From the NCBI GenBank assembly GCA_028282585.1, contig JANQHR010000114.1, positions 1-40,549 on the forward strand: a DNA stretch of 40,549 bases. Reading direction: 5' to 3'. The notes beneath the pieces were generated by a model that was not told the DNA's origin, searched no databases, and was given only the letters and a program-made list of their open reading frames with translations. How positions within the stretch are numbered: position 1 is the stretch's first letter; every line of letters starts with the position of its first letter. Below are positions 1,403-36,917 of this stretch, piece after piece. The stretch comes from Bacteroidales bacterium (GTDB lineage: Bacteria > Bacteroidota > Bacteroidia > Bacteroidales > UBA12077). A program made the position numbers and the translations under genes.

Positions 1403-1442
1403 ACAATAAATTAATACTGAAATTTAATAAAAAAGAAACTCG

Positions 1443-4409: not shown

Positions 4410-4420
4410 AATATAAGAAC

Positions 4421-5935: not shown

Positions 5936-5973
5936 GAAATTATTAAATTAATTATTAACTAAAATTCATAACT

Positions 5974-7227
5974 ATGAAAAAAAATGTTTTTAAAAAAGTG
6001 TTTAACCTTTCTTGGTTGATTTTGGCAGCCTTGTTAACATTCACTGCATGTGATGATGATGACGATGATGATAATGATGATATTATTGTACTTGATGGTA
6101 TATATATCAAAGGAGATGCAACTGCATTAGCTGAATTTGATAGCAAGGGACGGTTTGAAGTTACAAAAAATGAAATTACTCAAGAAGACAGGGCCAGCTT
6201 ATATGAAAAGTATATTGCTGTAAGTGCTACCGGTGGTTTTAATATTGTAATGGTTGCGGGAGAAACTAGAACTACCTATGGGCCGGGTGCTGATTTTGCC
6301 GTTGTTGCTGAAGCGGATAAGATTACGGATGAACCTAAAGACGTAGATTTTAGGAGAGGTTCTTACATGGAAACTGAAACAATGTTTACAGTTCCAGCTG
6401 ATGGTTTGTATCATGTTGTAATTGACACTGAATTAATGAAAGTTGCTATTATGCCTGTAATCTGGGGTGTAATTGGTGCTGCTACTCCTGATGGATGGGG
6501 AGGTTCTACCGCTATGACTGAACCTGCTTTTAATAACGAAACTATGGCTTTCTCTATCTCAGATATGGAATTAAGAGGTGGCGACTGGAAATTCCGTTAT
6601 TCTAATGGCTGGAAGGTTGTACTTGACACTGTTGTAGAATTAACAGGAGGAGATAAAGGAGTTCGAGTGAATACTAATTTTGGTGGTGCTGTAGATGCTT
6701 TAGTTTCTGGAGGAGACAACATTGTAAATGAGGATCCTGGTGTATATACTATTACAATGACATGGGAATTAGGCTCGGGACACACGGCAACAGCAACAAA
6801 AACAGATGATCTTCCATTAACTAATTGGGAAGGTGTTATCTGTGATGCTGTTGGTGATGGAGTAAGTGTCGACAATGTTAATGCGATTCCAGATCCAAGT
6901 GGATGGGCATGGGGCAACAAACTATTGGCTGATGGTCCTCCGGTTAAAGATGGAGATGTTTATACCTGGACCTGGACTGGGATCATTCTTGAAGCAGATT
7001 CTGGTTTCAAGTTAAGAACTGAAAACGGTGAAGCACCTGCTAGTGGTGGGGCTAACTTTGATGCTGGTTTGGAAGCCGTTGATCATGCAAATAGTTCAGC
7101 AAATGTAAATCCTGATACTTCAGGAGACTTAACTGTAACTGTTAAGGGTACATATGATATAACTCTTACGATTGATGCAGCTGATAGCGATGCTAAAGTA
7201 ATAACAATTAAAGATTCTGCTAAATAA
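5974..7227 (+). CDS. SusE/SusF-like starch-binding surface lipoprotein
   Basis: Lipobox FTAC followed by a poly-Asp run; CBM-like motifs WGVIGAATPDGWG, WKFRYSNGW, GFKLR; third gene of the sus operon. Confidence 0.8.
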   Translation: MKKNVFKKVFNLSWLILAALLTFTACDDDDDDDNDDIIVLDGIYIKGDATALAEFDSKGRFEVTKNEITQEDRASLYEKYIAVSATGGFNIVMVAGETRTTYGPGADFAVVAEADKITDEPKDVDFRRGSYMETETMFTVPADGLYHVVIDTELMKVAIMPVIWGVIGAATPDGWGGSTAMTEPAFNNETMAFSISDMELRGGDWKFRYSNGWKVVLDTVVELTGGDKGVRVNTNFGGAVDALVSGGDNIVNEDPGVYTITMTWELGSGHTATATKTDDLPLTNWEGVICDAVGDGVSVDNVNAIPDPSGWAWGNKLLADGPPVKDGDVYTWTWTGIILEADSGFKLRTENGEAPASGGANFDAGLEAVDHANSSANVNPDTSGDLTVTVKGTYDITLTIDAADSDAKVITIKDSAK

Positions 7228-7244
7228 ACCTTATAGAAGTCTTT

Positions 7245-7271
7245 GAAGGCATGCATTGCATGCCTTCTTTT
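7245..7271 (+). terminator. Hairpin terminator/attenuator after susC-susD-susE/F
   Basis: Perfect 10-bp stem GAAGGCATGC-ATT-GCATGCCTTC followed by TTTT. Confidence 0.75.
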
Positions 7272-7293
7272 CAAATTTATAATAGTTTAAGAT

Positions 7294-10059: not shown

Positions 10060-10080
10060 TTCTAATTAACTTAGTATATA

Positions 10081-10704
10081 ATGGGTGTTAAATTTAGTTT
10101 TTATAGTTTGTTAATAATCTTCATATCGATTTCCTTTGGGTTTGTTATGGCTTACTGGCGGTTTAGGGGAAGGATCGCCAGTTTAAAAAGCCTTGCTTTC
10201 TCCGATGATTTAGGAATATACAATCACAGGGAACTTAAAAAGAAATTAAGATCTCTTATTAAAAATCCTGATATTAATTCATTTGTGTTTGTATTAATTG
10301 ATATTGACCGGTTTAAGAATTACAATGATCACTATGGTTATGATAACGCAGATGCTTTACTTCAAGAATTTGTGGATATAACGAAGAACTTTATCCGAAA
10401 ATCGGATATGTTTTTTAGATATAAGAATGGAGATGAGTTCGCACTATTGTTTAGAAATACCGGTTCAACGGAAGCAAAAGAAATTGGAAACAGGTTAAGA
10501 AGAGCTATTGCAAATCATACCTTTCACTTAGACGATCACGATATCAACCTTACTATAAGTATGGGAATTACAAGCTGTCAGAAAAGTGATAATCCTGATA
10601 ATGTGAGGAAGAGAGCAGAGCTTGCTTTATATGAAGCTAAACAATCAAAAAACACAGTAGTTCTTATTGGCGAAGAACAAAAAAAAGCAGACCTCGTATA
10701 TTAA
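10081..10704 (+). CDS. Membrane-anchored GGDEF-domain protein with variant active-site motif (RYKNGDEF)
   Basis: One N-terminal hydrophobic helix; LIDIDRFKNYNDHYGYDNAD, RKSD, NGDEF, LTISMGI, RAELALYEAK. Confidence 0.85.
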   Translation: MGVKFSFYSLLIIFISISFGFVMAYWRFRGRIASLKSLAFSDDLGIYNHRELKKKLRSLIKNPDINSFVFVLIDIDRFKNYNDHYGYDNADALLQEFVDITKNFIRKSDMFFRYKNGDEFALLFRNTGSTEAKEIGNRLRRAIANHTFHLDDHDINLTISMGITSCQKSDNPDNVRKRAELALYEAKQSKNTVVLIGEEQKKADLVY

Positions 10705-10713
10705 GGCCTGCTT
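10681..10713 (-). terminator. Probable terminator of the GH13 lipoprotein gene, overlapping the GGDEF stop codon
   Basis: AAGCAGACCT...AGGCCTGCTT stem with an A-run on the left (U-tract on the minus strand). Confidence 0.55.
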
Positions 10714-10729
10714 AAGCTCTTATTAAGAG

Positions 10730-12106
10730 CTATTTAAATACTTTATAATCCCAGGCTGCTAAAGAATAACTATTTGCAAACTCTTCATCTGTAAATAATT
10801 CACTTAGATTTGAACCATCGATTTGATTTGCAAATTCAAATTCAACTTCTTCTGCAGAGAGGTTTAGTATTGTTATTACTTTATGATCATCCTTAACTCT
10901 TGAAAAGGCAAAGATATTGCCATCGGCATTGGTTTCAATTCTTTCCATTGTACCGCCAAAATTTCCATTCCACAAAGCAGGATTTTCTTTTTTAAGTTTA
11001 AGTAGAGCAGAATATAACTCATCAAAATGGCATTCTTTGCTCCAGTCAATCTCATCTTTTTCGAAAAATTCCAAGCGTTTATCTAAACATGCTTCCTGGC
11101 CGCTATAAATTAATGGCATACCTGGTATTGTAACAGATAATACAGCAAAGGCTTCCGCTGCATCTCCCAATCTTTCTTCAACAGTACCATTCCAAGAATT
11201 TTCATCGTGATTACTTATGAAGTGCATTCTGTAATCAGCGAAATCATAATCTGTTTTTTCTTTTTCTAATCTTTCAACTAAATCTTGAATAGTTTTTTTA
11301 CCTTGTGCTATTTCGTTAAAAATATGATGCATTCCCCATGCATAGGTCATGTCAAAACCGTTTTCGTGTAATTCAGGTTCCCAAGCTTCGGCTAACATAA
11401 ACACGGGTTTAATTTTATCAAGTTCAGTTCTTGTTTTATTCCAGAAATCAAAAGGAACCATTCCTGCTACATCGCAACGATAGCCATCAATATTAAATTC
11501 CTTAACCCAATATTTTAAGGCTTCAATCATATAATCTCGCATTTCCGGAACATCGAAATTAAAATCTGCAACATCGCTCCAATCATCCACAGGTGAAACA
11601 ATTTCGCCAGCTTCATTTTTAGTATACCATTCGGGATTGGTGTAAATTAATTCGTTATCCCAAGCAGAATGATTTGCAACCCAATCAATAATGATATACA
11701 TATCCATTTCATGGATTTTTGCTACCAGGCTTCTGAAATCTTCTTCAGTTCCAAATTCAGGATTAATTCCGTAATAGTCTTTTACAGAATAATAACTACC
11801 TAAAGTACCTTTTCTGTTTTTTTCTCCGATAGGATGAATTGGCATTAACCATAAAATATCGGTTCCAAGTTCTTTTAATCTTGGTAAATGTTCAGCAAAA
11901 GCATTAAATGTTCCTTCAGGAGTATACTGTCGAATATTAACTTCATAAATACTCAGGTTCTTGCTCCATTCTACGGGTTCAACTTTCTTATCTTCAGCAC
12001 TTTGTTCTTGGTTGGTTGTGGATGGTCCACAGCCAGTTAAATACGTCAATGTTATAGTTAACATTATCAAGGACATAGCCCTTTTTGTTAAATTAATTTT
12101 TTTCAT
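10730..12106 (-). CDS. GH13 alpha-amylase-family lipoprotein
   Basis: Lipobox LTGC; IDWVANH, DGYRCDVAG, AEAW, SNHDENSW. Confidence 0.92.
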   Translation of the reverse strand: MKKINLTKRAMSLIMLTITLTYLTGCGPSTTNQEQSAEDKKVEPVEWSKNLSIYEVNIRQYTPEGTFNAFAEHLPRLKELGTDILWLMPIHPIGEKNRKGTLGSYYSVKDYYGINPEFGTEEDFRSLVAKIHEMDMYIIIDWVANHSAWDNELIYTNPEWYTKNEAGEIVSPVDDWSDVADFNFDVPEMRDYMIEALKYWVKEFNIDGYRCDVAGMVPFDFWNKTRTELDKIKPVFMLAEAWEPELHENGFDMTYAWGMHHIFNEIAQGKKTIQDLVERLEKEKTDYDFADYRMHFISNHDENSWNGTVEERLGDAAEAFAVLSVTIPGMPLIYSGQEACLDKRLEFFEKDEIDWSKECHFDELYSALLKLKKENPALWNGNFGGTMERIETNADGNIFAFSRVKDDHKVITILNLSAEEVEFEFANQIDGSNLSELFTDEEFANSYSLAAWDYKVFK

Positions 12107-12314
12107 GTTAAATAATTTTGAATTTTTGTAATTATAAGCTCCCTAAATTGTGATATATCAAGGCATTTTGTTATTTTTGACAAGATTAGTTTTTGCCTTT
12201 TAAAGATAATAAAATTTTGATGAAAAACTGCATGAAAAGCAGACTAATTAAAGAGAATAGAGCGTTTTCTTCCCTAGTTAAAATTAGTTTAATAATCATT
12301 AAAAAAAGATTACA

Positions 12315-13409
12315 ATGAAACGTGTATTAGTTGCAACTGCAGGAGGAGATTGTCCTGGGCTTAATGCTGTTATTAGAGCAATTGTAAAAAGGGCATCTCA
12401 GGAGCGTGACTGGGAGATTTTAGGTAGTATCCAAGCTTTCAATGGAATATTGTGGGAACCAACTGAGGTTAAGATCTTGGATGAAAAGGCTGTTGCTGGA
12501 ATCCACTTCCAGGGAGGAACAATAATTGAAACAACAAACAAAGGAGGGCCTTTTGCATGGCCTATAAAGGATAAAAATGGCAAATGGACAACTGTGGATC
12601 GTTCAGAAGAGATGATTCGTAAGTTGATGTACATGGGTGTTGATGCGGTTATTAATATTGGTGGCGATGGCTCGCAGAGAATTTCTCAAGCTTTATATGA
12701 GAAAGGTTTGAGTATTATTGGCGTTCCAAAAACGATTGATAATGACTTGTCTGCTACAGATACAACCTTTGGTTATCAAACTGCAGTGCAAATTGCTACA
12801 GAGGCAGTGGATAAATTGGTGACAACTGCTGCCAGTCATAACCGTGTAATGGTGCTGGAAGTTATGGGACGAGATGCCGGATGGATTGCGATGAATGCAG
12901 CTGTTGCAGGAGGTGCTGAGATTTGCCTTATTCCGGAAATTCCTTATGATATTAATAAGGTAGTTGAAAAAATTAACGACAGGTTTAGAAGAGATAGAGG
13001 ATTTACAATTATTGTAATTGCAGAAGGAGCGCATGCTATAGGAAAAGAAGTTTCTCAAGAAAAGAACGATGAAATTGGTTATGCCAATGCAAAACTTGCC
13101 GGAGCTGCAACAAAACTAGTTCAGGAACTAAAAGAAGCTGGAATAAAGCATAGTATACGTAAAGCGGTATTGGGTCATATACAAAGAGGTGGTGTGCCAA
13201 TTGCTTACGATCGTGTGTTGGCTACACAATTTGGAGTTCATGTATTTGAAATGGTACTTGAAGGTAAGTTTGGAGAAATGGTTTCATACCGCCATCCTCA
13301 TATTACCTCGGTTCCTTTCAAGGAGGCAATTCAAGAGCCTAATTTTGTTACGCTTGATACAGCATTAATGAGGAATGCAAGGGGTGTAGGGATTAGTTTT
13401 GGAGATTAA
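12315..13409 (+). CDS. pfkA: 6-phosphofructokinase (PfkA family, group III-like, probably ATP-dependent)
   Basis: GGDCPGLNAVIRA, GGDGS, PKTIDND, EVMGRDAGWIA, LGHIQRGG. Confidence 0.93.
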   Translation: MKRVLVATAGGDCPGLNAVIRAIVKRASQERDWEILGSIQAFNGILWEPTEVKILDEKAVAGIHFQGGTIIETTNKGGPFAWPIKDKNGKWTTVDRSEEMIRKLMYMGVDAVINIGGDGSQRISQALYEKGLSIIGVPKTIDNDLSATDTTFGYQTAVQIATEAVDKLVTTAASHNRVMVLEVMGRDAGWIAMNAAVAGGAEICLIPEIPYDINKVVEKINDRFRRDRGFTIIVIAEGAHAIGKEVSQEKNDEIGYANAKLAGAATKLVQELKEAGIKHSIRKAVLGHIQRGGVPIAYDRVLATQFGVHVFEMVLEGKFGEMVSYRHPHITSVPFKEAIQEPNFVTLDTALMRNARGVGISFGD

Positions 13410-13425
13410 TCAAACAGATAATAAT

Positions 13426-13456
13426 AAAAAACGGCTTTTAAAAAGGGCCGTTTTTT
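13426..13456. terminator. Bidirectional intrinsic terminator between convergent pfkA and the neopullulanase gene
   Basis: AAAAAACGGCTTTT-AAA-AAGGGCCGTTTTTT. Confidence 0.8.
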
Positions 13457-13511
13457 GGTTGGTTCAAATTAACTTTCGTAATTGCTCGCGAGAAAAGTTT
13501 CTAGTTGTAAG

Positions 13512-15359
13512 TTATTTACGAAGTTCTATAATCATTGCAGACTTTTTGCCACAACTAATTTTATTAAGGTTTTTTAATTCAGATTTTGATATAATATCAA
13601 TTCCAGATGTATAACCTGAAAGTATTTCATTAAATCTACCGGTTTCAATAACTTGCTCAGATTCATTATTATTAAGGATGATCATTACGCAATCATTCTC
13701 ATTATGTCTGAAATAAACATAAATATTATTTTCCGGCACAAAGTGTGTTAAATTACCCGTGTGTATTACTGGCTTAGATTTTCTCCAGTCTAAAATGTTT
13801 TTGTAATAATTAAATATTTCATTCTGATCAATATTTCTACCCGTCTCATCAAAACAGTTTATTTTATCGCCTGGCCAACCACCTGGAAAATCTTTACGCA
13901 TTTTTCCATGCGCTTCATGAGCATAACCTTCCATAAGTATCTCCGTTCCGTAATAAACAGAAGGAATGCCACGAGTGGTTAATTGAAATGCTATGGCTAA
14001 TTTCAATTTATTTAAATCTTTATTTAAAGATGAGTAAATTCTGGTAACATCATGATTGTCCAGAAATACCAATGTATTCATGGCTTTTTCATAAACGAAA
14101 TCTTGAGCAAGAACATAATACAGCCTTGACATGCCTTCGGTCCAGGATTGTTCTTCACTAAAAGCTTGATTAATTGCATTAAATAGTGGGAAGTCAGTAA
14201 TGACCGGAATATTTGAAGAATAATCGTCAAAGTTACTGGAGCTCTTTTGCCAGTAAGCTGTAATTGGAATTTTTTGGAGCCAGGCTTCTCCAAGAATTGT
14301 GAAATCAGGATATTCATCATATATTTTCTTTGCCCACTCAGCGACCATGTCCTTATCTGAATATGGTTGGGTATCTAACCGTATTCCATCAATTCCTGCA
14401 TATTCGATCCACCATATTGAGTTTTGAATAAGGTAATTGGAAAGGTATTCGTTTTTCTGGTTTAAATCAGGCATATTTACATCAAACCAACCGTTTTGTT
14501 GTAAGTTAAAATCGTATTCGGAAGCATATGGGTCAGTTATAACAGACGATCTAAAATTTGAACGTGTGAATTCGGGGAATTGATGAATCCAATCTTCGCT
14601 TGGTAGGTCATCCATCCACCAATGATTAATTCCACAATGATTTAAGACAACATCTTTGATAATTTTTAGTTCTTTTTGATGTGCTTTATTAACCAGCTCT
14701 TTATACTGTTCGTTGTTACCGTAACGTGGATCAATCTTATAGAAGTCTGTAATGGCATAACCGTGATAAGTATATTTCTCTTGGTTATTTTCCAACAAAG
14801 GGTTTATCCAAACTGACGTTACCCCAAGGTTTTTTAAATAATCCATATGATTTATAATCCCCTGGATATCTCCTCCGTGTCTTCCGTCCGGATTTTCACG
14901 GTTTACTTTTTCACGCATGTCGGGTGAAGAATCGTTGTTTACATTTCCATTTGAGAACCTATCGGGCATTAACAGATAAACCACATCTGAATTATCAAAT
15001 CCCTGATGTTGATTTTTACTTTTAATTCTTTTTTTTAATTCATAATGTATAGTTTCTATTAACTCACCATCTTTCTCCAGGCTTATTTTAAGTTTGGTAG
15101 CCTGTAGATTTTTAGGAATAGATAAATTTAAGAATACATAATTTGGATTTTCGATCTTATCAATGCCTACCAATAATTCATTCTTGTCAATTTGTATATT
15201 ATATTCAGAAATGTTATCTCCATATAACATAATTTGTAATTCCGGGTTTTTCATTTCCGTCCACCAAAAAGGAGGGGCAACCCTATTTATAACTTGTGAA
15301 TTAGATATTAATGTTACACAAGTGAAAATAATAACCAATATAGTTTCTTTAATTTTCAT
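13512..15359 (-). CDS. SusA-like neopullulanase/cyclomaltodextrinase (GH13), exported
   Basis: Signal peptide; N-domain RVAPPFWW..M; YLLMPDRFSNG, YHGYAITD, DGIRLDT, GEAW, DNHD. Confidence 0.92.
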   Translation of the reverse strand: MKIKETILVIIFTCVTLISNSQVINRVAPPFWWTEMKNPELQIMLYGDNISEYNIQIDKNELLVGIDKIENPNYVFLNLSIPKNLQATKLKISLEKDGELIETIHYELKKRIKSKNQHQGFDNSDVVYLLMPDRFSNGNVNNDSSPDMREKVNRENPDGRHGGDIQGIINHMDYLKNLGVTSVWINPLLENNQEKYTYHGYAITDFYKIDPRYGNNEQYKELVNKAHQKELKIIKDVVLNHCGINHWWMDDLPSEDWIHQFPEFTRSNFRSSVITDPYASEYDFNLQQNGWFDVNMPDLNQKNEYLSNYLIQNSIWWIEYAGIDGIRLDTQPYSDKDMVAEWAKKIYDEYPDFTILGEAWLQKIPITAYWQKSSSNFDDYSSNIPVITDFPLFNAINQAFSEEQSWTEGMSRLYYVLAQDFVYEKAMNTLVFLDNHDVTRIYSSLNKDLNKLKLAIAFQLTTRGIPSVYYGTEILMEGYAHEAHGKMRKDFPGGWPGDKINCFDETGRNIDQNEIFNYYKNILDWRKSKPVIHTGNLTHFVPENNIYVYFRHNENDCVMIILNNNESEQVIETGRFNEILSGYTSGIDIISKSELKNLNKISCGKKSAMIIELRK

Positions 15360-15370
15360 AGGGCTAATAT

Positions 15371-17683
15371 TTAATTACAGTAATATGTCTTTGATTCTCT
15401 TTCTTTAATTTTATATTCAATCCCATAAATAAATAACCTGATCTTTTCTCCTCCCTGGTTAGAGATTACCACTTTTTCCTTTGTTACTTCCACCTTTAAA
15501 AGTGTATCTCTATATTTAACCATGAATGAATATACGTCCCATTTTTCCGGAATGAAAGGATTGAAGTGAAGCTCATCATTAATTAAGCGCATTCCCCCAA
15601 ATCCTTCTACAATAGAAAGATAAGTTCCTGCCATGCTAGTAATATGTAATCCCTGATAAACTTCATCATTATAATCATCCAGGTCTAAACGCGCTGTTCG
15701 GAGGTATAACTCATAAGCTTTTTCTTTATAGCCTAATTTAGCAGCCAAAATGGTATGTACACAAGGTGAAAGTGAAGATTCATGAACTGTTTTTGGTTCA
15801 TAAAAATCGAAATTCCTTTTAATAGTTTCGTCGTCATAATTGTCTTCAAATATATATATCCCTTGTAAAACATCTGCTTGCTTAATAAAGCAAGAACGTA
15901 ATATCCTGTCCCATGACCATTTTTGATTTATAGGCCTGTCTTCCGGTTTTAGGTCATCAACGGTTAACAATTCCTTATCCATAAAACCATCTTGTTGTAA
16001 GAATACACCTAATTCTTCATTTTCCGGGAAATACATATTATCAATAATGTTGGTCCATTTTCCAACTTCTTTCAATTCATCAAAATTTATTTTTTCTTTT
16101 AATGCTTTGTATTTTTCCGGGTTTGTTGATTGAATCTTGGTTATGCATTTTATGGTATAATCCAGACACCAAACAGCCATAAGGTTTGAATACCAGTTAT
16201 TGTTAACATTGTTCTCATATTCATTAGGACCTGTTACACCTAGCATTACATATTTGTTCTTGGCATTTGAAAAGTTTACGCGTTGTGCCCAGAATCGACT
16301 AATAGCTATTAAAACTTCAAGCCCATAGTCTTCTATGTACGTTTCATCACTGGTATAACGAGTATAATTATAAATTGCAAAAGCTATAGCTCCATTTCTG
16401 TGGATTTCTTCGAAAGTAATTTCCCATTCGTTATGGCATTCTTCACCATTCATTGTCACCATTGGATAAAGAGCGGCACCATTTGTAAAACCTAGCTTTT
16501 CGGCATTTTCAATTGCTTTCTGAAGATGCCTGTATCGATATAGTAATAGATTTTTTGATACTTTTTTATCTGATGTTCTTAAATAGAAAGGTAAACAATA
16601 AGCTTCTGTGTCCCAATACGTACTTCCTCCATATTTTTCTCCGGTAAATCCTTTTGGTCCAATGTTTAACCTTTCGTCATCACCTGTATAAGTTTGATTT
16701 AACTGGAAAATATTAAATCGAATTGCTTGTTGGGCTGCAACATCACCTTCAATTACAATATCACTATCCGTCCATTTGCACTTCCATGCATTTGCATGCA
16801 GATTAAAAAGCTCATCGAATCCTTTTTCGAATGATCTTTGCAATATATTATGTGCAGCAATGGTTAGCGTATCATTACTATGATTTTCGGAATGAGTAAT
16901 TGCAGCGTATTTATAAATTGTTATAGTATCTTCCGGTTTTACTTCAAGCTCAATCGTTTGTCCAATGTATTTTTCTTTTTGTTCCTCTTTAACAGCATGT
17001 GTAACTTTTATTCCGTTTTTTTCGATATTAAATTTCATGCTGGTACAAACATTAAAATCTAATTTTTTCGTTTTAACAGTCACATAAGCTTCTCCTGGCC
17101 GGCTTTCTACAGCTACTTCTTCCCAAAACTTTTCCTGATAGTTAGCATCTTCATTAATTACATCTCCATCTATATAAGGAGTAATAGATAATTTGTCGTT
17201 TACACTTATACTTTTTATTTCATACTTAATACAACCCAGTTCTTTCTCATGAATACTGATAAACCTTTTCGATTTTACTTCTATGATATTTTCATCTGAA
17301 AATTCAGCAGTGAACGACCTTTCAAGATAACCTTCCTGCATATTTAATACTCTTCTAAAGTTCTCAACCTTCACTTTCGATAAATCTAAGCTCTTGTTTC
17401 CAACTTTTATATTTATTCCAATCCAGTTTGGTGCGTTCAATACTTTTGCAAAATATTCGGGATAACCATTTTTCCACCATCCGACTTTGGTTTTATCCGG
17501 ATAGTAAATACCTGCAATATAACTACCCTGCAGGCTATCACCTTCATATTGTTCTTCGAAATTTGCTCTTTGCCCAATATGCCCGTTTCCCAGTGAAAAT
17601 ATACTTTCTGAAGATCTTTGATTTTTCGGATTAAACCCTTCTTCAATTATACACCAATCGTCATGTTTCAAATACTTGTTCAT
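15371..17683 (-). CDS. GH65 maltose phosphorylase
   Basis: ESIFSLGNG, IGPKGFTGEKYGG..YWDTE, GVTGPNEYE, IKQADV, HESSLS; adjacent to beta-PGM. Confidence 0.95.
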   Translation of the reverse strand: MNKYLKHDDWCIIEEGFNPKNQRSSESIFSLGNGHIGQRANFEEQYEGDSLQGSYIAGIYYPDKTKVGWWKNGYPEYFAKVLNAPNWIGINIKVGNKSLDLSKVKVENFRRVLNMQEGYLERSFTAEFSDENIIEVKSKRFISIHEKELGCIKYEIKSISVNDKLSITPYIDGDVINEDANYQEKFWEEVAVESRPGEAYVTVKTKKLDFNVCTSMKFNIEKNGIKVTHAVKEEQKEKYIGQTIELEVKPEDTITIYKYAAITHSENHSNDTLTIAAHNILQRSFEKGFDELFNLHANAWKCKWTDSDIVIEGDVAAQQAIRFNIFQLNQTYTGDDERLNIGPKGFTGEKYGGSTYWDTEAYCLPFYLRTSDKKVSKNLLLYRYRHLQKAIENAEKLGFTNGAALYPMVTMNGEECHNEWEITFEEIHRNGAIAFAIYNYTRYTSDETYIEDYGLEVLIAISRFWAQRVNFSNAKNKYVMLGVTGPNEYENNVNNNWYSNLMAVWCLDYTIKCITKIQSTNPEKYKALKEKINFDELKEVGKWTNIIDNMYFPENEELGVFLQQDGFMDKELLTVDDLKPEDRPINQKWSWDRILRSCFIKQADVLQGIYIFEDNYDDETIKRNFDFYEPKTVHESSLSPCVHTILAAKLGYKEKAYELYLRTARLDLDDYNDEVYQGLHITSMAGTYLSIVEGFGGMRLINDELHFNPFIPEKWDVYSFMVKYRDTLLKVEVTKEKVVISNQGGEKIRLFIYGIEYKIKERESKTYYCN

Positions 17684-17707
17684 TTGAAAGATCTTTTTAA
17701 AATTGTT

Positions 17708-18364
17708 TTAATTAAGTTCGTCAATAATTCTTTTGTCAATATCATTTAGGTCGGATACCACAATATCAGCATCAAATAATACTTGTTTGCTACCTACACC
17801 AACTGTTCTCATTTTTGCTCTTTTGGCAGCTTCAATTCCTGCATGCGCATCTTCGAATACGACACAATTTTCCGGTTTTATTCCAAGTTCTTCTGCAGCT
17901 TTTAGAAATACCTCAGGATCAGGTTTGGAATTTATAATTTTTGTACCATCGACAATTGCATCAAAGAATTTATCATATCCAATTCTTTCCAGGATAGTAC
18001 CTGCATTTTTACTTGATGATCCTATGGCAAGCTTATATTTTGCTTTTTTAAGTTCTTTTAGGAAGTTTTCGACGCCCGGCAACAGGTCTTTGGGAGTCAT
18101 TTTAAGTATATTCTCGCGGTACCAGTCATTTTTTTTAGTAGCTAACTGAACCTGCTCTTTTTCCGATGGAAGAGGTAATTCACCAAACTCAAAAAGTAAT
18201 TCAAGAGACTCCATTCTGCTAACACCTTTCAATCTTTCATTTTGTTCCAGTGAAAAATAGAATCCTAACTCTTGAGCCAGTCTTTTCCAGGCCTGGTAAT
18301 GAAACCTGGCAGTGTCTACAATAACACCATCTAAATCGAAAATAATAGCCTCTATGTTTTGCAT
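17708..18364 (-). CDS. pgmB: Beta-phosphoglucomutase (HAD family)
   Basis: IFDLDGVIVDTA, KGVSR, KPDPEVF, FEDA..G. Start moved to the ATG at 18364 (MQNIEA), 1 nt after the MFS stop, rather than the track start inside the MFS gene. Confidence 0.93.
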   Translation of the reverse strand: MQNIEAIIFDLDGVIVDTARFHYQAWKRLAQELGFYFSLEQNERLKGVSRMESLELLFEFGELPLPSEKEQVQLATKKNDWYRENILKMTPKDLLPGVENFLKELKKAKYKLAIGSSSKNAGTILERIGYDKFFDAIVDGTKIINSKPDPEVFLKAAEELGIKPENCVVFEDAHAGIEAAKRAKMRTVGVGSKQVLFDADIVVSDLNDIDKRIIDELN

Positions 18365-18365
18365 T

Positions 18366-19859
18366 TTAATCTTCATCTTTAACAAATACAACTAATATTC
18401 CAGCAAGTATCATTGAAATACCACCAAGTACCAGTGCATATATCGATTGATTATTAAATATTGATTTAATAAAGAACCCTAGTATGCTAGCAGCAACAAT
18501 CTGTGGAATTACAATGAAAAAGTTGAATATTCCCATGTAAATACCCATCTTGTTAGATGGTAATGAGCCTGTGAGAATTGCATAAGGCATAGCAAGAATA
18601 CTTGCCCAAACCAGTCCGATTCCTATGAAAGGAATCAATAAAATAGTACTATTTGTAATAAAGTATATAGAAATAAAGCTTATTCCTCCTACTAATAGAG
18701 ATATTGTGTGAGTTATTTTTCTATTTGTTAGTTTTGATAAGGTAACCAAAAGAAAGGCAAATAAGGCCGCCGTTCCGTTATATATGCCAAAACAAATTCC
18801 CACCCAGTTTGCCCCTTCATTATATTCTAAAGTGCCTGGTAAAGTATTATATATATGTTCGGTAATTGCCGGCGTTGTATAGATCCACATTGCAAATAAA
18901 GCAAACCACGAAAAAAACTGAACTACAGCAAGTTGTTTCATGGTTTTTGGCATTGCATTAAGGTCATTCATAATCTCGACCAAACCGCCTTTGGTACTTC
19001 CGGTTTTTTGAAGTAATCCGGCTAGTATTTCAAATACGCCAAATGCTAAAAGGCCTATTGATAAGATGTATACCTCTTTGTCAACTTTAAAATAATATAG
19101 AATTACAGTTGTTAATATACCTAAAAGTGTGAGTATAAGACCTATTTTAATACACTTGCCTCCCAAAACCGTATTTCCTTGTTCATGAACCTCACCGGTT
19201 GGTTCAGAATCTTCGAAACTTGCCAGTTCTTCAGGCGAATATTCTTTGGTAGAAAAAACGGTCCAGGCAACTGCCAATAGAAATACAACACCTCCTATAT
19301 AAAATGAGAACTTAACAGAAGGTGGAATTACACCATCCGGAGCAGTATTTTCAATACCTAACCAGTTAGTCATTACCCATGGCAATACAGAAGCTACAAT
19401 CGCTCCAATTCCAATGAAAAAGCTCTGCATAGCAAATCCCTGAGTTCTTTGTTTTGCAGGTAGCATATCACCAACAAAGGCCCTAAATGGCTCCATAGAA
19501 ATATTGATCGATGCATCCATTATCCATAGCATTCCTATGGCAATCCATAACATAGGTGAATTAGGCATAAAAAATAAGGCAATGGTTGCTAATATTGCAC
19601 CAACAAGGAAATATGGCCTTCTGCGGCCTAAACGTCCCCAGGTTTTATCGCTATAATGTCCAACTATGGGTTGTACTATTAAACCAGTCACAGGTGCAGC
19701 TAACCAATACAAAGAAAGATTTTCAACTTCCCCGCCCAGGGTCTGAAATATTCTACTAACGTTGGCATTTTGAAGGGCAAATCCGAATTGAATTCCGAGG
19801 AATCCAAAACTCATGTTCCATATTTGCCAAAAACTCAAAGGTTTTTTCTCTTTTTTCAT
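18366..19859 (-). CDS. MFS (GPH/SLC45-like) maltose/maltodextrin transporter
   Basis: QIWNMSFGFLGIQFGFALQ, SD.TWGRLGRRRPY, MGIFNFFIVIPQI; many TM helices. Confidence 0.92.
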   Translation of the reverse strand: MKKEKKPLSFWQIWNMSFGFLGIQFGFALQNANVSRIFQTLGGEVENLSLYWLAAPVTGLIVQPIVGHYSDKTWGRLGRRRPYFLVGAILATIALFFMPNSPMLWIAIGMLWIMDASINISMEPFRAFVGDMLPAKQRTQGFAMQSFFIGIGAIVASVLPWVMTNWLGIENTAPDGVIPPSVKFSFYIGGVVFLLAVAWTVFSTKEYSPEELASFEDSEPTGEVHEQGNTVLGGKCIKIGLILTLLGILTTVILYYFKVDKEVYILSIGLLAFGVFEILAGLLQKTGSTKGGLVEIMNDLNAMPKTMKQLAVVQFFSWFALFAMWIYTTPAITEHIYNTLPGTLEYNEGANWVGICFGIYNGTAALFAFLLVTLSKLTNRKITHTISLLVGGISFISIYFITNSTILLIPFIGIGLVWASILAMPYAILTGSLPSNKMGIYMGIFNFFIVIPQIVAASILGFFIKSIFNNQSIYALVLGGISMILAGILVVFVKDED

Positions 19860-29458: not shown

Positions 29459-32452
29459 TTATTTCTTTTCCAATATTATTAGCCTATCATTCAGTTCTTT
29501 TAGTTTAGCCTCAAGTTCTTCATTTTTCCTAGCTTGCTCATCAATAATTGATTGCTGTTCTTGTATACTCTTTATTAAAACAGGAATTAAATCGGAATAT
29601 CTTAAACTTAGCGTATTATTTTCGTCATTTCCAACATCCACAATCTCCTTTATTACAGGTTGAACTTCTTGCGCTATTAAGCCTAACTTCATACCTTGTT
29701 CCGGTTTATCTCTCCATAAAAAACTTACCGGCCGCAACTTTAAAACATCTTTTAATCCATATGAAATATTCAAAATATTAGATTTCAACCTTTTATCAGA
29801 AGAAGTTGATACACCACTTATTGCATATACCGTATTCCAATCATTTGATCCTAATATACCCAGATCATTTGCCCCGTCATCAGCAGGATATAAATCGCCA
29901 TCAATTTTAGCATTTCCGTTTTTATAGACAACAAAAGCATCATTTGCCCATCCATTTGTTACATATCCGTTTCCTACAACAAACACTGGATCAGAAGTGG
30001 ACCAGGTTGTTGCACTTGCCGATATGCTGGCATTATATTGCCCTATTACTAAAGATGCAAAAGCGTGTGATTCAATGTTATTACCTAAAGCTACAGAATA
30101 ATTACCTGAAGATTCAGTATTTGTTCCTGAAGCTATAGAAGCTCTACCTGAAGCTGTTGTATTTAATCCGGCAGCAAATGATTCATCGCCATTAGCGGTA
30201 GTTTCTGTGCCCTGACCTATTACCAGAGAATAATCTCCGTTTGCTGTTGTATTTAATCCGGCAGATATAGATGCCTGACCTGCTGCTTCCGTTCCGGATC
30301 CCGTAGCAAAAGAATATGCACCACTTGCAGTATTTCCTTGTCCAATTGCTGATGCTGCTGTTTGAGTACTTGAATTTAATTTACCTGCGATAAATGTTCC
30401 ATCACCATTAGCAGAATTACTTGATCCAAAAACAACCGATGCAACTCCTACGGCTGTATTATCGCTTCCTGCAACCATTGACTGCAAGCCTTCAGCAGAA
30501 TTTCCCAAACCAAATGCTACTGATGCTGCACCTTGCGCTTGATTATTTGCACCTATTGCTAAAGAATAATTTCCGCTTGCAACATTTTTAGCTCCCATTG
30601 CCGTCGCATTCCATCCTGTTGCTTCGGATTCAAACCCTGCTGCGCTTGAAAAATTACCAATAGCACTACAATTAGTTCCCATCACGAAAGAACCAATACC
30701 ACTAGCCTCTGAACCAAGTCCAAATGCAAAAGAATAATCTTCAGTGGCTTTTGTATACGAAGAAGTTGGATTTCCAAGCGAATCTACACCATTTGAACCA
30801 AATGCGAAACTATTAAATCCCAAGGCTTTTGTACCCCTTCCAAATGCAAATGAGTTAGTATCGGCAACAGTTTCATAGCCTATGGCAGTGCTATATTCCC
30901 CACGAGCTACGCTCATGTAACCCATGGCTTGAGACCAATCTCCAATAGCCAAATTCTTATATCCAAGAGAAAGAGAGTATTCACCAACACTATCAGCACT
31001 TGGTATAAACAATTCCCCCGCAAGTAACGCAGATTTCCCCGGATACCACATAACTCTCGATTCATTATTAATTACTTCTGCAGTAAAATTAGGTGATATG
31101 TTGAAATAATCTTTACTTGGTCCCTTACTTGGATTACGTCCACTAACTGCAAAGCCACCAACTTTTGCTTTATCAATTGGTTCTGCAACATATATTCGAG
31201 TTGAATCTTTATTAATCTGTATATATTCATTTATACTTCCTTTTGATGGATTACGCCCGCTTACAGCGAAACCTCCTACTTTGGCTTTACTTGCAGACTC
31301 TTCAACATAAATCCTTGTGCTATCATTCGTAACTACTAGATAATCATTTACAACTCCTTTGCTTGGATTTCGACCGCTGACCGCAAAACCTCCCACTTTG
31401 GCCTTACCAACCGGTTCTTCAACGTAAACTCTTGTACTATCATTCGTAACTACTAAATAATCATGTACAACTCCTTTACTTGGATTTCGACCACTTACCG
31501 CAAAACCTCCCACTTTGGCTTTATCTAATGACTCGTTAACGTAGATCCGCGTACTATCAATTGTAACTTTTAATATATCAATATCTCCCGCTTTTGAAGG
31601 ATTTCTTCCACTTACTGCAAAACCTCCTACTTTTCCTTTGGCTTGCGAATCAACAAAAATCTTAACACCATCCGGATAAACGGCAAATACAGTATCATTA
31701 TTTGCATTTATTACCTGGAACAATGCTTCTGTCCCTGCAACATTAGCTTTAACTTCCAAATTACTAACCGGCGCAGAAGATCCAATACCAACGTTTCCTG
31801 CATTATAATATATCTGTTCACCGTTCATTATCCAACTACTACTATCATAAGGTAATACCACCTTATTTCCATTCGAAATAATCAAAGTATCTCCATTTAA
31901 GGTAAGTTCCTGCTCATCGGTATTATTTCCGGTAAATGGTGCTAAATTTATGGCAGTAGGCGAAGGGTTTCCAGTGATGGTTAACACATCATCACTTAAA
32001 TTTAAGTCCTGAATCTCATTTGTCGGATCAGGGTCAGCATCATCGTTATTTTCAACATTTAGTGCATAATTTGCAAAAGGGACGGAAAATAACTGGAACG
32101 TTCCCATATCTACAAATCCATTTCCAATATCAACTTCGAGTTTAATAAATTTAGAATTGTTTCCCCAGTTTATTGAAGTGAAAGTACCTAGATCCGAGCT
32201 ACCATTTCCAACTAATAAATTGATCATTCCTTGTTCAGATGTAGTTACATCGTGTGTTTCTCTATAGATTTCATTTCCACTTGCAGTAGATTCAATAATG
32301 GTCAGGCGAATATCTACCTGCTGATTTGAAATTAGCTCACCATCATTATCCCTGATTACAGCCTGGTAATTAAAATTCTCTGTTGTTTGCGCAAATAATC
32401 CGATTATCTGCATTTTTAAAACAACAATGATAAAAAACGCTATCCTTCTCAT
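29459..32452 (-). CDS. Exported tail-fibre/adhesin-like protein (paralogue 1) with five 39-aa repeats, YadA-head-like repeats and C-terminal peptidase S74-type chaperone
   Basis: Signal peptide ..LFA|Q; NYQAVIRD..SVPFANYA domain; DADPDPTNEIQ; GNVGIG; 5x KVGGFAVSGRNPSK; S.A.G..(N/T).A.G repeats; SDKRLK..LRPVSF.W..GLIAQEV..YSDLIPVLIKSIQE plus coiled coil. Confidence 0.85.
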   Translation of the reverse strand: MRRIAFFIIVVLKMQIIGLFAQTTENFNYQAVIRDNDGELISNQQVDIRLTIIESTASGNEIYRETHDVTTSEQGMINLLVGNGSSDLGTFTSINWGNNSKFIKLEVDIGNGFVDMGTFQLFSVPFANYALNVENNDDADPDPTNEIQDLNLSDDVLTITGNPSPTAINLAPFTGNNTDEQELTLNGDTLIISNGNKVVLPYDSSSWIMNGEQIYYNAGNVGIGSSAPVSNLEVKANVAGTEALFQVINANNDTVFAVYPDGVKIFVDSQAKGKVGGFAVSGRNPSKAGDIDILKVTIDSTRIYVNESLDKAKVGGFAVSGRNPSKGVVHDYLVVTNDSTRVYVEEPVGKAKVGGFAVSGRNPSKGVVNDYLVVTNDSTRIYVEESASKAKVGGFAVSGRNPSKGSINEYIQINKDSTRIYVAEPIDKAKVGGFAVSGRNPSKGPSKDYFNISPNFTAEVINNESRVMWYPGKSALLAGELFIPSADSVGEYSLSLGYKNLAIGDWSQAMGYMSVARGEYSTAIGYETVADTNSFAFGRGTKALGFNSFAFGSNGVDSLGNPTSSYTKATEDYSFAFGLGSEASGIGSFVMGTNCSAIGNFSSAAGFESEATGWNATAMGAKNVASGNYSLAIGANNQAQGAASVAFGLGNSAEGLQSMVAGSDNTAVGVASVVFGSSNSANGDGTFIAGKLNSSTQTAASAIGQGNTASGAYSFATGSGTEAAGQASISAGLNTTANGDYSLVIGQGTETTANGDESFAAGLNTTASGRASIASGTNTESSGNYSVALGNNIESHAFASLVIGQYNASISASATTWSTSDPVFVVGNGYVTNGWANDAFVVYKNGNAKIDGDLYPADDGANDLGILGSNDWNTVYAISGVSTSSDKRLKSNILNISYGLKDVLKLRPVSFLWRDKPEQGMKLGLIAQEVQPVIKEIVDVGNDENNTLSLRYSDLIPVLIKSIQEQQSIIDEQARKNEELEAKLKELNDRLIILEKK
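31124..31633 (-). repeat. Five intragenic repeats with exact 117-bp (39-aa) period
   Basis: The motif Ala codon recurs at 31148, 31265, 31382, 31499 and 31616. Confidence 0.9.
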
Positions 32453-32556
32453 AACTATAAATTTAAATGTTAGAGTAAGATAACGTTTTAAATACTTATA
32501 ATCAAATCAAATAAATAACCGTCTGTAATTTCTAATTAAACGATTTTATTTCGCTA

Positions 32557-35304
32557 TTAATCGTTTTTTAATAATTTTTCAATTTCATGGATTTTATTTT
32601 CCAATTGATTAATCCGCTCGCTTTGTTCCTGAATAATAACCTGTTGTTCCTGAATTCCTTTAATTAACACAGGTATCAAATCAGAATAATTTATACCTAG
32701 TGTTTCATTCTCATCATCTCCATGATGAACCACTTCCTCAATAACTTCATCTACTTCCTGTGCGATTAATCCTATTTTTTGCTTTTCGCTTTCTTTTCCC
32801 TTCCAATTAAACATTACCGGGCGTAATTTCATTATATCCACTAAGCCATAGCTTATTAAACCAATATTTGATTTTAATCTTAGGTCGGAAACATTTATGG
32901 TTCCGGTTGTTGCATAAACAGTATTCCATCTGTTTGAAGAAGTTCCTAAGTTATTTCCACCGTCACTATCGGGGTATAAGTTTCCATCGAATTTGACATT
33001 TCCGCTTTTATAAATCACTAATGCATCATTCCTACTTAAGAAGGCTGTTCCATTTCCGACTACAAATAATCTATCCCCACCTACCCAACTTGTAGCATTA
33101 CCTGAAACTTGCGTAGGATAAATTCCAAATACAGATTCGCCATAAGAATTTGCTTCATTGTAATAACCTCCACCTACAAATGAATAGTTTCCTGCGGCAA
33201 TATTCTGTCTTCCTCCACCAATGGTTGAATAATCACCAGATGCAGCATTTGTTTGTCCACCCGTCACAGATGCTCTTGAACCACTGGCGTCGTTTCCATG
33301 TCCGCCGGCTACAACCGACATAGACGCTAATGCTTCATTCAGATATCCTCCACCAATTGTTGACATGTAACCCGTAGCTTGATTCCCTTCTCCTCCACCA
33401 ACAGTTGTGGCATATTCACTAGCGATATGGTAAAGCCCCCCTCCTATGGCAGCATATTCATCGGACGCCTTATTATTTCTCCCTCCTGAAACTGTAGCTC
33501 CTTCTGCCGTAGAATTATTTAAAAATCCCAATACAGTTGCATAGTTTGCGGTTACCGTATCAATGGCTCCAATCGCAACAGAGGCTATTCCTGAAGCATA
33601 GGTTCCTGATCCTATTGCAATAGAATTAGCACCTGCGGCTTCGGCTCCCGGAGCATCTAAATATAAAGTAAAATCGCCACCACCTACTACTAACTCAAAG
33701 TCTCTAAAAGCAGATCCCAGAGCCACTGAGTTTAAACCGGAAGCGGTTGCAGAGTCTCCAATGGCGATTGAATTATGGTTTAAAGCCCTTGTATGACTAC
33801 CAAAAGAGTAAGCATTTGACACTGTATCCGTATAACCGGCAATTGCATTATTCCCAACAGCCATGGAATAACTACCTCTCGTAATTGATTTGTAGCCCAT
33901 TGCCTGCGAATAATCACCTATTGCTTTTGACTCAAAGCCCGAAACAAGAGAATTCGTACCAACACTATCAGCAGATTCAACCAGTACTCTTCCTGTTAAA
34001 AACGCTTCTTTATTAGGATACCAAAGAATTCTTGGTTCACTGGGATCGATTATTTCAGCAGTAAGATTGCCAGAAACATTGAAATAGTCACTGTAATTAC
34101 TTTTTGATGGATTTCGGCCACTCACAGCAAAACCACCAACTTTTCCCTTTCCTGCTGTTTCCGATATATAAATACGTGTACTATCTTTATTAATTTGCAG
34201 ATAATCATTTACCGACCCTTTACTAGGATTGCGCCCGCTTACAGCAAATCCTCCTACTTTTGCTTTGGTGGCAGATTCATTAACATATATTCTGGTACTA
34301 TCCATCGTAACCTTTAAAATATCCCATCCTCCGGATTTAGATGGATTTCGGCCACTCACTGCAAAACCACCAACTTTTCCTTTAGCTTCATCATTAATAA
34401 ATATTTTTACACCATCGGGATAAACTGCGAAAACCGTATCGTTAATTGCATTTATAACCTGAAACAATGCATCCGTCCCTACCGAATTAGCTTTTACCTC
34501 CAAGTTACTAACAGGATTAGCCGAACCTATTCCTACATTCCCGGTATTGTAATAAACATGATTACTATTTAAAGACCATACGCTACTGTCATAAGGAAAT
34601 GCAATTTTATTTCCACTACTAATCTGTAATGTATCATCTAAAAATGTTAAAGTTTGTATTTCATTTGTTGGATCATGATCAGCATCATCAAAACCATCTT
34701 GTAAAGAACTAACATCAATTGTGTTTCCACCTGAAATTGATAAATTCGTTCCTGAAAGACTTAACACCTGTTCATCTGTATTATCTCCCTGAAAAGGTGC
34801 TAAATTAATTTCCGTAGGGTTGGTTTTATTGGTAACTGTTAAAATGTTATTGGTTAAATCAAGGTCCTGAATTTCATTTGTAGGATCAGCATCCGCATCA
34901 TCCTTATTCTTTACATCAAATGCATAATTTGCATATGGCACAGATTGTAGTTGAAAAGTACCCATATCTACAAACCCATTTCCTAAATCTATCTCAACCA
35001 TAATAAATTTTGAATTTTCTCCCCATTGTATACTTTCAAAGTCACCGAGACTAGAAGTTCCCATTCCAATTGACAAGTTTATTAAACCTACCTCATTGGT
35101 AGTAACAGTATGATTTTCAGAATAAATTTCATCTCCGTCAGCTTCAGAGTCAATGATTGTTAACTGAATTTGAACAGACTGATTTATAACTAATTCGCCT
35201 TCACTATTTCTTACAATTGCTTGATAGTTAAAATTCTTAATTGTATTTGCACTTATAAATGCTCCGAATATAAGTGCAGGAAAAAGAAGTAAAAATCGTT
35301 TCAT
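32557..35304 (-). CDS. Exported tail-fibre/adhesin-like protein (paralogue 2) with three 39-aa repeats, Gly-rich head repeats and C-terminal peptidase S74-type chaperone
   Basis: Signal peptide; NYQAIVRN..SVPYANYA; 2x DAD.DPTNEIQ; GNVGIG; 3x KVGGFAVSGRNPSK; (S/A)T(V/I)GGG..N.A repeats; SDLRLK..LRPV.F.W..GLIAQEV..YSDLIPVLIKGIQE plus coiled coil. Confidence 0.85.
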   Translation of the reverse strand: MKRFLLLFPALIFGAFISANTIKNFNYQAIVRNSEGELVINQSVQIQLTIIDSEADGDEIYSENHTVTTNEVGLINLSIGMGTSSLGDFESIQWGENSKFIMVEIDLGNGFVDMGTFQLQSVPYANYAFDVKNKDDADADPTNEIQDLDLTNNILTVTNKTNPTEINLAPFQGDNTDEQVLSLSGTNLSISGGNTIDVSSLQDGFDDADHDPTNEIQTLTFLDDTLQISSGNKIAFPYDSSVWSLNSNHVYYNTGNVGIGSANPVSNLEVKANSVGTDALFQVINAINDTVFAVYPDGVKIFINDEAKGKVGGFAVSGRNPSKSGGWDILKVTMDSTRIYVNESATKAKVGGFAVSGRNPSKGSVNDYLQINKDSTRIYISETAGKGKVGGFAVSGRNPSKSNYSDYFNVSGNLTAEIIDPSEPRILWYPNKEAFLTGRVLVESADSVGTNSLVSGFESKAIGDYSQAMGYKSITRGSYSMAVGNNAIAGYTDTVSNAYSFGSHTRALNHNSIAIGDSATASGLNSVALGSAFRDFELVVGGGDFTLYLDAPGAEAAGANSIAIGSGTYASGIASVAIGAIDTVTANYATVLGFLNNSTAEGATVSGGRNNKASDEYAAIGGGLYHIASEYATTVGGGEGNQATGYMSTIGGGYLNEALASMSVVAGGHGNDASGSRASVTGGQTNAASGDYSTIGGGRQNIAAGNYSFVGGGYYNEANSYGESVFGIYPTQVSGNATSWVGGDRLFVVGNGTAFLSRNDALVIYKSGNVKFDGNLYPDSDGGNNLGTSSNRWNTVYATTGTINVSDLRLKSNIGLISYGLVDIMKLRPVMFNWKGKESEKQKIGLIAQEVDEVIEEVVHHGDDENETLGINYSDLIPVLIKGIQEQQVIIQEQSERINQLENKIHEIEKLLKND
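34102..34377 (-). repeat. Three intragenic repeats with exact 117-bp (39-aa) period
   Basis: The motif Ala codon recurs at 34126, 34243 and 34360. Confidence 0.9.
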
Positions 35305-35447: not shown

Positions 35448-35705
35448 TTTATCACCTTTAAAGTTCTTTCAATAATTTCAAGTTTTTCAATTAATTGCTG
35501 TTGCTTTTCTTCAATTCCTTTATCCCATTATTTAACTGCGTAATAAAATTATGCACCTTTCTCAACTTTTCTGACATTTGCTCTCTTTACTCTGAAATTA
35601 TTATATCCATTAGAATTTGAAAGGAATAATAATCATTTTTCATAACTCAAATCATTATAATTTAATGAAAAGAAAAATACTTGTATTTAGCATAAAGGTG
35701 ATAAA
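35448..35705. repeat. 13-bp perfect inverted repeats flanking a 232-bp segment
   Basis: TTTATCACCTTTA (35448-35460) and TAAAGGTGATAAA (35693-35705), with an imperfect outward extension TTTCGA/TCGAAA. Confidence 0.6.
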
Positions 35706-35957: not shown

Positions 35958-36917
35958 ATGAAAAACTCTTTATTAATAGTACTTTTGCTCTTTTCGATAA
36001 ATGTTGTGTTAGGTCAGTTACCTGGTGAAAAAAAATGGAAAGAAAGCTTAATTAAAAACCGCGTCCAAACCCAGGCACAATGGAATCATAAATATGAAAA
36101 AGGAAAGCCTAAAAAAGATGGTTATAAGAATTACACTAAGAAATTTGATCTTAATGGAAATATTATTGAAGAAATATATTATCAGTCTGGTAATGTGGAT
36201 CAAAAGTTAAGTTATAAATATGATGATGAAGATAAGCAGGTTGAGTACGCAAATTATAAAGGTGAGGAAGGAAAACTACTTTTTAAGCAAAATATAACCT
36301 ACGATAATTCCGGACAAAAAATAAGAGAAGAAAGATTTAACGGAACTGAATATCAAATAATTAAATATAACTACGTAGGAGATAAATTATCTGAAATAAC
36401 AAGATCTGATATTTATGGTTATGTTGAGCATAAAAGAGTATTCAAATATACTGGTAATATTTGCGCTATATCTATTTTTGATGACCAATCAAATAATATT
36501 GGAAAAATTATTAATAAGTACGATAATAATGATAATATAATCGAAAGCACAGAATATGATATCAATGGAAATATCAAAGAAAAGTACTTATATACTTTTG
36601 ATGGTGACCTGGTTAAGGAAAAATCAAAATTTGCCGGAGAAAATTTTATCTATAAAGAAATTTACGAATATAACTTAAATGACCAACTCATTAAAGTCAT
36701 TAAAGAAGAACAACAAGGGAAAACAGTTGTAAATAATATTTACAAATATGATTCTGCAGGTAGACTCATTGAAGAAAAATGGCATGATAATCATCCTACT
36801 GAAAATTCCCAAAAAACATATTTTTATAATAGTAAAGGATTACTAGAAAAAGTTGAAGTTTACTACGCACTGTATCGATACCGGATACAATACAGATATG
36901 AATATACTTATTATTAA
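35958..36917 (+). CDS. Exported YD/RHS-like beta-hairpin repeat protein of unknown function
   Basis: Signal peptide ..VLG|Q; recurring Y.YD..G..IEE..Y units about 23-25 aa apart; ends YRYEYTYY. Confidence 0.75.
   Translation: MKNSLLIVLLLFSINVVLGQLPGEKKWKESLIKNRVQTQAQWNHKYEKGKPKKDGYKNYTKKFDLNGNIIEEIYYQSGNVDQKLSYKYDDEDKQVEYANYKGEEGKLLFKQNITYDNSGQKIREERFNGTEYQIIKYNYVGDKLSEITRSDIYGYVEHKRVFKYTGNICAISIFDDQSNNIGKIINKYDNNDNIIESTEYDINGNIKEKYLYTFDGDLVKEKSKFAGENFIYKEIYEYNLNDQLIKVIKEEQQGKTVVNNIYKYDSAGRLIEEKWHDNHPTENSQKTYFYNSKGLLEKVEVYYALYRYRIQYRYEYTYY

Follow-up and report, generated by a model that had tools for sequence, protein, structure and literature searches.

Tandem MAT-like fiber genes of a Bacteroidales bacterium and a candidate type IX secretion adaptor encoded apart from them

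The stretch of DNA analyzed here, referred to as the window, is the 40,549-nucleotide contig JANQHR010000114.1 of a Bacteroidales bacterium (assembly GCA_028282585.1), and it carries on its reverse strand two adjacent genes for large fiber proteins, gene 1 (P0001, 997 aa; 29459..32452) and gene 2 (P0002, 915 aa; 32557..35304). Each protein starts with a predicted signal peptide and a conserved N-terminal domain (N-domain) and ends in a Peptidase_S74 (S74) intramolecular chaperone. On balance, we favor the view that these fibers, which resemble the MAT fibers of Bdellovibrio bacteriovorus and have no sorting tag of their own, are exported and anchored piggy-back by a separate adaptor of ~50 residues that is tagged for secretion by the type IX system (T9SS), and that this adaptor acts here in trans and is likely the product of a stand-alone gene, C100, located elsewhere in the genome.

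The evidence for such an adaptor is gene linkage. Another N-domain gene of this genome (C80) lies 7 bp behind a gene for a 162-aa protein that consists of a signal peptide, a module of ~50 aa and a type A T9SS tag. The type A tags of the proposed adaptors scored 42.1 and 44.1 bits against TIGR04183 (cut-off 23), and none of 472 N-domain proteins matched the type A tag profile, which finds 41 open reading frames (ORFs) in this genome. When loci were fetched from GTDB by adaptor sequence alone, 79 module matches were obtained in 78 of the 79 loci, and in the remaining locus the module is frameshifted and an N-domain gene comes after it. An N-domain gene was directly downstream of the module in 72 of the 79 matches and five matches were at a contig edge, which corresponds to linkage in 72 of the 74 informative loci; in one of the two exceptions the N-domain gene was one gene further. 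The linkage was kept across the phylum despite changes in gene order, tag type and fiber tip, with the tail of the module being a type A tag, a type B tag ahead of a PorP/SprF gene, or an IPTL-like tail (a weak match).

Co-occurrence was determined in 120 genomes of the phylum that were at least 90% complete, using two N-domain profiles and one broad module profile, which was in part trained on loci from the same 120 genomes. The N-domain was present in 40 genomes and the adaptor module in 29, all of them within those 40, and the broad profile identified no module in the 80 N-domain-negative genomes. In an out-of-sample check, three genomes that had at first been scored as module-positive and N-domain-negative turned out to carry an N-domain gene after all, a divergent one next to the module in each case. 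Of the T9SS components, SprA and PorU were both above cut-off in this genome. PorU also exceeded it in 86 of the 120 genomes, among them 38 of the 40 with the N-domain; the two PorU-negative N-domain genomes also had no adaptor match. No single-chain fusion of adaptor and N-domain was found among the loci and proteins examined; a word-based search for one counts as weak evidence. When modeled alone, the module gave a predicted local distance difference test score (pLDDT) of <50 on a 15-row alignment; this poor model would fit a module that folds on a partner, although as evidence it is weak. Based on the linkage, it is probable that the adaptor module binds the N-domain.

Neither the window nor the large arrays of N-domain genes in related genomes contained an adaptor module. 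This genome has exactly two module genes, the one on C80 beside its N-domain gene and the stand-alone gene (G000:C100:31450-31992). Of 18 genomes of the genus, 17 had a module gene, and the stand-alone locus was the same one in the eight that were read; in G011 (63% complete) the N-domain was present and the stand-alone module was not detected. Among 69 distinct cases of C100-subtype modules in metagenomes, 47 were beside an N-domain gene, 2 were near one, 11 were at an edge and 9 had none, with six of the last nine being at the stand-alone locus of the genus. The subtype of the adaptor also corresponds to that of its neighbor, in that G-E adaptors pair with F[K/N]YQ-type N-domains and G-Q adaptors with [M/I/L]SYQ-type N-domains, a pairing that was correct for 121 of 123 cases in cross-validation (130 non-redundant pairs). 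Within the N-domain, family positions 4-6, 52 and 93-95, which are close to the first and last strands, vary with the adaptor subtype. All six unpaired N-domains of this genome scored as G-E, as did C100, and the C80 domain scored as G-Q, as did its own neighbor. Similarly, 44 of 48 N-domains flagged as unpaired in the relatives scored as the C100 subtype, and one of the four misses was a mislabeled paired gene. Identity to C100 was not correlated with identity to the window domain (rho 0.02, 79 pairs). We lean, by a slight preference, toward C100 as the partner of the window pair.

Several further arrangements of the module and of similar small proteins were observed. In P0184 and P0213 the module is fused to a C-terminal domain of ~230-280 aa with the motifs LEG/LQG...HRNHL and no NCBIfam match, which is possibly another sorting or anchoring domain. 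At L208:2657-4174, L209:1746-6005, L301 and L308 the module immediately precedes the T9SS tag of large enzymes or adhesins, an arrangement that would allow docking of a fiber on another cargo. A second family of tiny T9SS-tagged proteins, with a short YxYDAAGNR motif, is encoded beside large RHS-like genes (G000:C105:9174-9650, C61:50672-51223 and C23:1494-1973) and is a possible analogous adaptor for RHS-like proteins. One adaptor showed a weak match (E 3e-5) to the pilin PamT of the Candidate Phyla Radiation, for which the accessible text of PMC13278184 describes a truncated Ig domain.

Both fiber ORFs of the window are intact, are 104 bp apart and share 44% identity over 1051 columns. The earlier note on this DNA had proposed that the two proteins have the same order of modules, and all motifs were indeed located in that order. 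In gene 1, a predicted Sec signal peptide (aa 1-21; 32390..32452, reverse strand, as are all features of the pair) is followed by the N-domain (aa 22-134; 32051..32389), which is the proposed adaptor-docking domain, a DPTNEIQ linker, five 39-aa repeats that have no Pfam match (aa ~266-450; 31103..31657), YadA-head-type repeats (aa ~484-815; 30008..31003; PF05658, E 1.6e-25) and, from SDKRLK at aa 885, the S74 chaperone with a terminal coiled-coil-like stretch (29462..29800; PF13884, E 8e-12). In gene 2, the N-domain (aa 20-132; 34909..35247) is 64% identical to that of gene 1 and is followed by three 39-aa repeats (34075..34401), a differing head region (YadA_head, E 4e-9) and the S74 chaperone from SDLRLK at aa 806, again with a terminal coiled-coil-like stretch (32560..32889; PF13884, E 3e-13). 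YadA_head and Peptidase_S74, the two families that had been named for a Pfam search, were thus above cut-off in both fibers. Among the shorter motifs, NYQA was at aa 28 and 26, SVP(F/Y)ANYA at aa 123 and 121 and GNVGIG at aa 219 and 255 of genes 1 and 2, respectively, and the DADxDPTNEIQ linker was present once in gene 1 and twice in gene 2. The 39-aa repeats have a 14-residue core at exact 39-aa spacing; the repeat region of gene 1 had 1327 homologues, and the named ones among the best 120 were nearly all from Bacteroidales/Bacteroidota.

The signal peptides were judged from sequence and hydrophobicity only: both have a positive start, a hydrophobic 9-mer (3.7 and 2.8, respectively) and small residues before Q/N, and in gene 1 the h-region includes a Lys. 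In agreement with the earlier note, which had excluded phage, T9SS C-terminal domain, lipobox and YadA-anchor sequences, the Pfam scan of both fibers gave no match to YadA_anchor or Por_Secre_tail, neither Pfam nor NCBIfam matched a T9SS C-terminal sorting domain, there was no Cys within the first 30 aa and no transmembrane-like stretch beyond the start region, and the neighboring ORFs were not of phage type. These results support host-encoded fibers whose C-terminus could not serve as an anchor. They also agree with the further suggestion that the conserved N-domain is the likely docking module, with a partner encoded elsewhere. Neither the N-domain profile nor the S74 end had a sequence match in the PDB, and a scan for promoters and terminators gave signal at chance level. 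From the S74 and YadA-head content we consider it very likely that the fibers are homotrimeric and MAT-like.

The N-domain, for which Pfam has no model, matched the NCBIfam model Bdello_MAT_N (NF053851) with E 3e-8 (33.5 bits) in gene 1 and E 4e-5 (23.6 bits) in gene 2, aligned to profile positions ~6-80 of 162 only. All seven N-domain proteins of this genome, the window pair and five paralogues, matched below the cut-off of 60 bits (E 2e-13 for one paralogue), and the multi-copy relative P0003 was over it. P0003 (916 aa) itself carries the N-domain six times in tandem and has a C-terminus of the FlgD-Ig type that looks like a sorting tail. The modeled N-domain is a seven-strand all-beta sandwich with a C-terminal helix (pLDDT 87.5). 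Fold searches with this model returned generic Ig-like sandwiches only (best Z 7.5, none at or above 8), Foldseek returned none at E<=0.001, and the 30 ESM Atlas matches were Bacteroidota clusters with no common Pfam family. With a 7-sequence profile, 26,113 clusters (50% identity) were identified, and the domain occurred in 28 of 31 related genomes, with up to 17 matches per genome. The domain was within the first 45 aa in 463 of 472 family proteins, and in the 73 that were scanned of the best 150 N-domain proteins the downstream regions varied among S74, YadA head, FISUMP, collagen, Lcl, Kelch, CBM9, F5/8 and LamG.

The distant relationship of the N-domain to that of the Bdellovibrio MATs places host-encoded S74 fibers in a known kind, and the description of the window fibers as an uncharacterized class was therefore overstated. 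According to the accessible text of Caulton et al. 2024 (PMC10769870), B. bacteriovorus has 21 MAT fibers with a ~130-aa beta-rich domain after the signal peptide, of which 13 end in S74, and both self-cleavage and surface display were demonstrated. The window fibers share with them a chromosomal paralogue family, a signal peptide, a conserved, homologous beta-rich N-domain, a mosaic fiber and an S74 domain with SDxxxK, S74 and non-S74 members occurring side by side in both. They differ in that their N-domains fall under the Bdello_MAT_N cut-off, in that the host is of a non-predatory Bacteroidales type and the shaft is made of YadA-head repeats and the Bacteroidales 39-aa repeat, and in that the N-domain family is linked to a T9SS-tagged module. 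Judged from sequence, the window fibers would thus be a variant of the MAT kind that falls short of the curated family cut-off. Like phage tailspikes and fibers such as the K1F endosialidase and the T5 L-shaped fiber, they have a C-terminal S74 domain with SDxRxK, but a signal peptide and a cellular N-domain take the place of the virion-binding domain and there is no phage context. With trimeric autotransporter adhesins (YadA, Ata) they share YadA-head repeats; however, they have no C-terminal barrel anchor and would have the opposite polarity, with a proposed N-terminal anchor and a C-terminus that would be cut off.

In the proposed mechanism, the fibers would be exported by Sec into the periplasm, where S74 would drive folding of the trimer and then cut itself off before the Ser of SDxRLK, a step for which the S74 domain is present in both proteins and the cleavage is extrapolated from phage fibers and Bd3182. 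The N-domain would then dock on the adaptor module, and the tag of the adaptor would carry the complex through the T9SS and become attached to the surface, so that the fiber would point outward from its N-terminus with the variable head and tip serving as adhesins. Type A cargo of the T9SS is anchored covalently at the surface, to anionic lipopolysaccharide (A-LPS). The accessible text of PMC10994853 describes recognition of the type A tag together with the carrier PorV within SprA. Like T9SS cargo (PMC10994853 and PMC12618676, in their accessible parts), the adaptors combine a signal peptide with either a type A tag or one of type B, the latter next to a PorP/SprF gene. Unlike such cargo, the adaptor is nearly devoid of a passenger (~50 aa), and since the large passenger is untagged and made as a protein of its own, this would be export in trans. 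The six N-domain genes of this genome that have no adaptor neighbor would share one stand-alone adaptor, which in the genus would serve tandem arrays with as many as a dozen or more interchangeable fibers. The literature searched, the main texts of mostly non-subscription papers, gave no report of MAT-type or S74 fibers linked to a T9SS-tagged adaptor, and PMC12428579, in its accessible text, holds both terms but treats them separately. The route that the earlier note called unrecognized is probably not wholly new, as it would lead through the T9SS; these sources did not describe a T9SS being used by way of a separate adaptor. This locus contributes the case of an unpaired array, a conserved stand-alone module and the subtype match.

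A number of points weigh against carriage of the fibers by the adaptor and have to be considered with the alternatives. Neighbors of N-domain genes supplied the seeds of the first adaptor profile, and one seed is itself among the fetched loci; 11 of the 40 N-domain genomes had no genome-level adaptor match (three had a locus-level match, three a by-eye candidate only and five none in 1.5-kb flanks); and the PorU contrast is not independent, because 25 of the 34 PorU-negative genomes belong to one family. In addition, Bdellovibrio is not known to have a T9SS, and since it displays MATs nonetheless, the N-domain is not strictly dependent on this route. The adaptor might then anchor only, capturing outside the cell a fiber that crosses the outer membrane by another route, common with the Bdellovibrio MATs, and all of the linkage data fit anchoring as well as they fit carriage. 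We regard this as fairly unlikely, given that no recurrent candidate exporter was found beside the fiber genes in the loci read and that a search of the genome for a YadA anchor was negative, with an E. coli control being positive. A search for a TpsB/ShlB two-partner-secretion partner gave no match in the genome, and its controls gave none. The subtype match is weakened by the fact that the subtypes are nearly single clades (two label changes on each tree) and it may reflect shared descent only. Moreover, the nearest tree tips of the window N-domains were a mixture of G-E and G-Q, giving no firm placement and no tie to a single adaptor clade, and G013 (94% complete, 380 contigs) keeps the stand-alone adaptor with no N-domain detected. 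Along with the lack of an adaptor in the window and in the large arrays of relatives, these last observations would suit an arrangement in which the linkage in paired cassettes is real, but the orphan arrays of the genus, the window pair included, use no adaptor or another partner and C100 has a different job. Such an arrangement is unlikely, as the window and other orphan N-domains retain the invariant residues of the family and nearly all score as the subtype of the stand-alone adaptor, which is at one and the same locus in the eight genus genomes noted above.

A further point against a direct interaction is that inter-protein covariation (0.38) was not above that of a within-subtype shuffle (maximum 0.37; effective number of sequences, Meff, 87). 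The genes of a cassette might instead be co-regulated without contact between their products, the fibers remaining periplasmic or leaving in outer-membrane vesicles and the small T9SS protein having its own function. We consider this improbable, since the small protein has only ~50 aa left after removal of its tag and gives a low-confidence model alone, and since the linkage outlasts the phylum-wide changes described above. It is highly improbable, and already largely excluded, that the genes encode tail fibers of a phage, tailocin or extracellular contractile injection system (eCIS), or split trimeric autotransporters. Such an origin could be read from the PHROG tail-fiber matches, from matches to YadA/Ata models that were far below cut-off, and from the presence of the N-domain on four IMG/VR contigs. 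However, the PHROG and YadA/Ata matches span the head and chaperone only, both genes begin with a signal-peptide-like sequence, the genome yielded neither a sheath gene (the control was positive in 3 of 14 genomes) nor a YadA anchor, and in two of the four viral contigs the N-domain is behind an adaptor gene, as a cargo cassette. The N-domain matched none of 50,697 phage records.

Upstream of the pair is the decayed 3' end of a third fiber gene (35476..35604, reverse strand; blastp best E 2e-5, blastx 8e-4), which has an in-frame stop and a frameshift and is 41-63% identical to the C-termini of array paralogues in relatives. At the same site, relatives carry arrays of up to seven N-domain genes, and together these findings indicate that the window pair is the remnant of a changing tandem array. 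A convergent Hsp20-like gene ends both fiber arrays of the genome (28830..29297, forward strand, in the window, and G000:C73:840-1286), and in the relative G008 the two sites bounded in this way form one continuous array. Divergent at the head of the window array, and conserved across the genus, is a gene for a protein of 319 aa that bears a signal peptide and YD-like repeats and had no Pfam match (35958..36917, forward strand). The array members L040:11961-15290, L043:1-777 and L045:9922-12714 share the fiber body, with another conserved N-terminal motif replacing the MAT-like domain. Chaperone-ended proteins without the N-domain are encoded at C161:30037-32846, C23:194-1973 and C58:2244-3209 of this genome (L005, L007 and L004, respectively); in C161:31131-32846 and C58:2244-3209 the S74-like region is followed by an apparent T9SS tag, which may be a second way of export for such trimers, and the tagged C161 gene is directly preceded by a gene for a 363-aa untagged chaperone-ended protein. 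The other 24 ORFs of the window that were scanned with Pfam, one of which had no match, comprise a starch-utilization locus and housekeeping genes, and no phage genes were among them. The former (143..19859) is an ordinary starch/maltose utilization locus (LacI, SusC/D/E-like, alpha-amylases, GH65, HAD hydrolase and MFS) that has in its interior a GGDEF-only gene (10081..10704) and a phosphofructokinase gene.

The partner that holds MAT-type fibers on the cell is a stated open question, with the element that binds the MAT N-domain described as one that 'awaits further study' in the accessible text of PMC10769870, and no partner is named in that of a 2026 review (PMC13689555). Cargo of the T9SS is normally recognized by its own C-terminal tag. 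We see an even chance that clip-on secretion is a phylum-wide system, in which untagged trimers are both exported and anchored by a module of ~50 residues that is joined to a T9SS tag and binds their MAT-type N-domain, and in which one adaptor of the genus serves whole arrays. If this is true, the MAT N-domain would have its first identified partner in the module, the two forming a two-part tag for the surface display of trimers, and a domain family of more than 26,000 clusters that has no Pfam model, and whose members are often annotated as 'tail fiber' or 'hypothetical', would represent hidden T9SS-dependent surface adhesins. To these the window pair would add a case in which the adaptor gene is separated from expanding fiber arrays with fast turnover.

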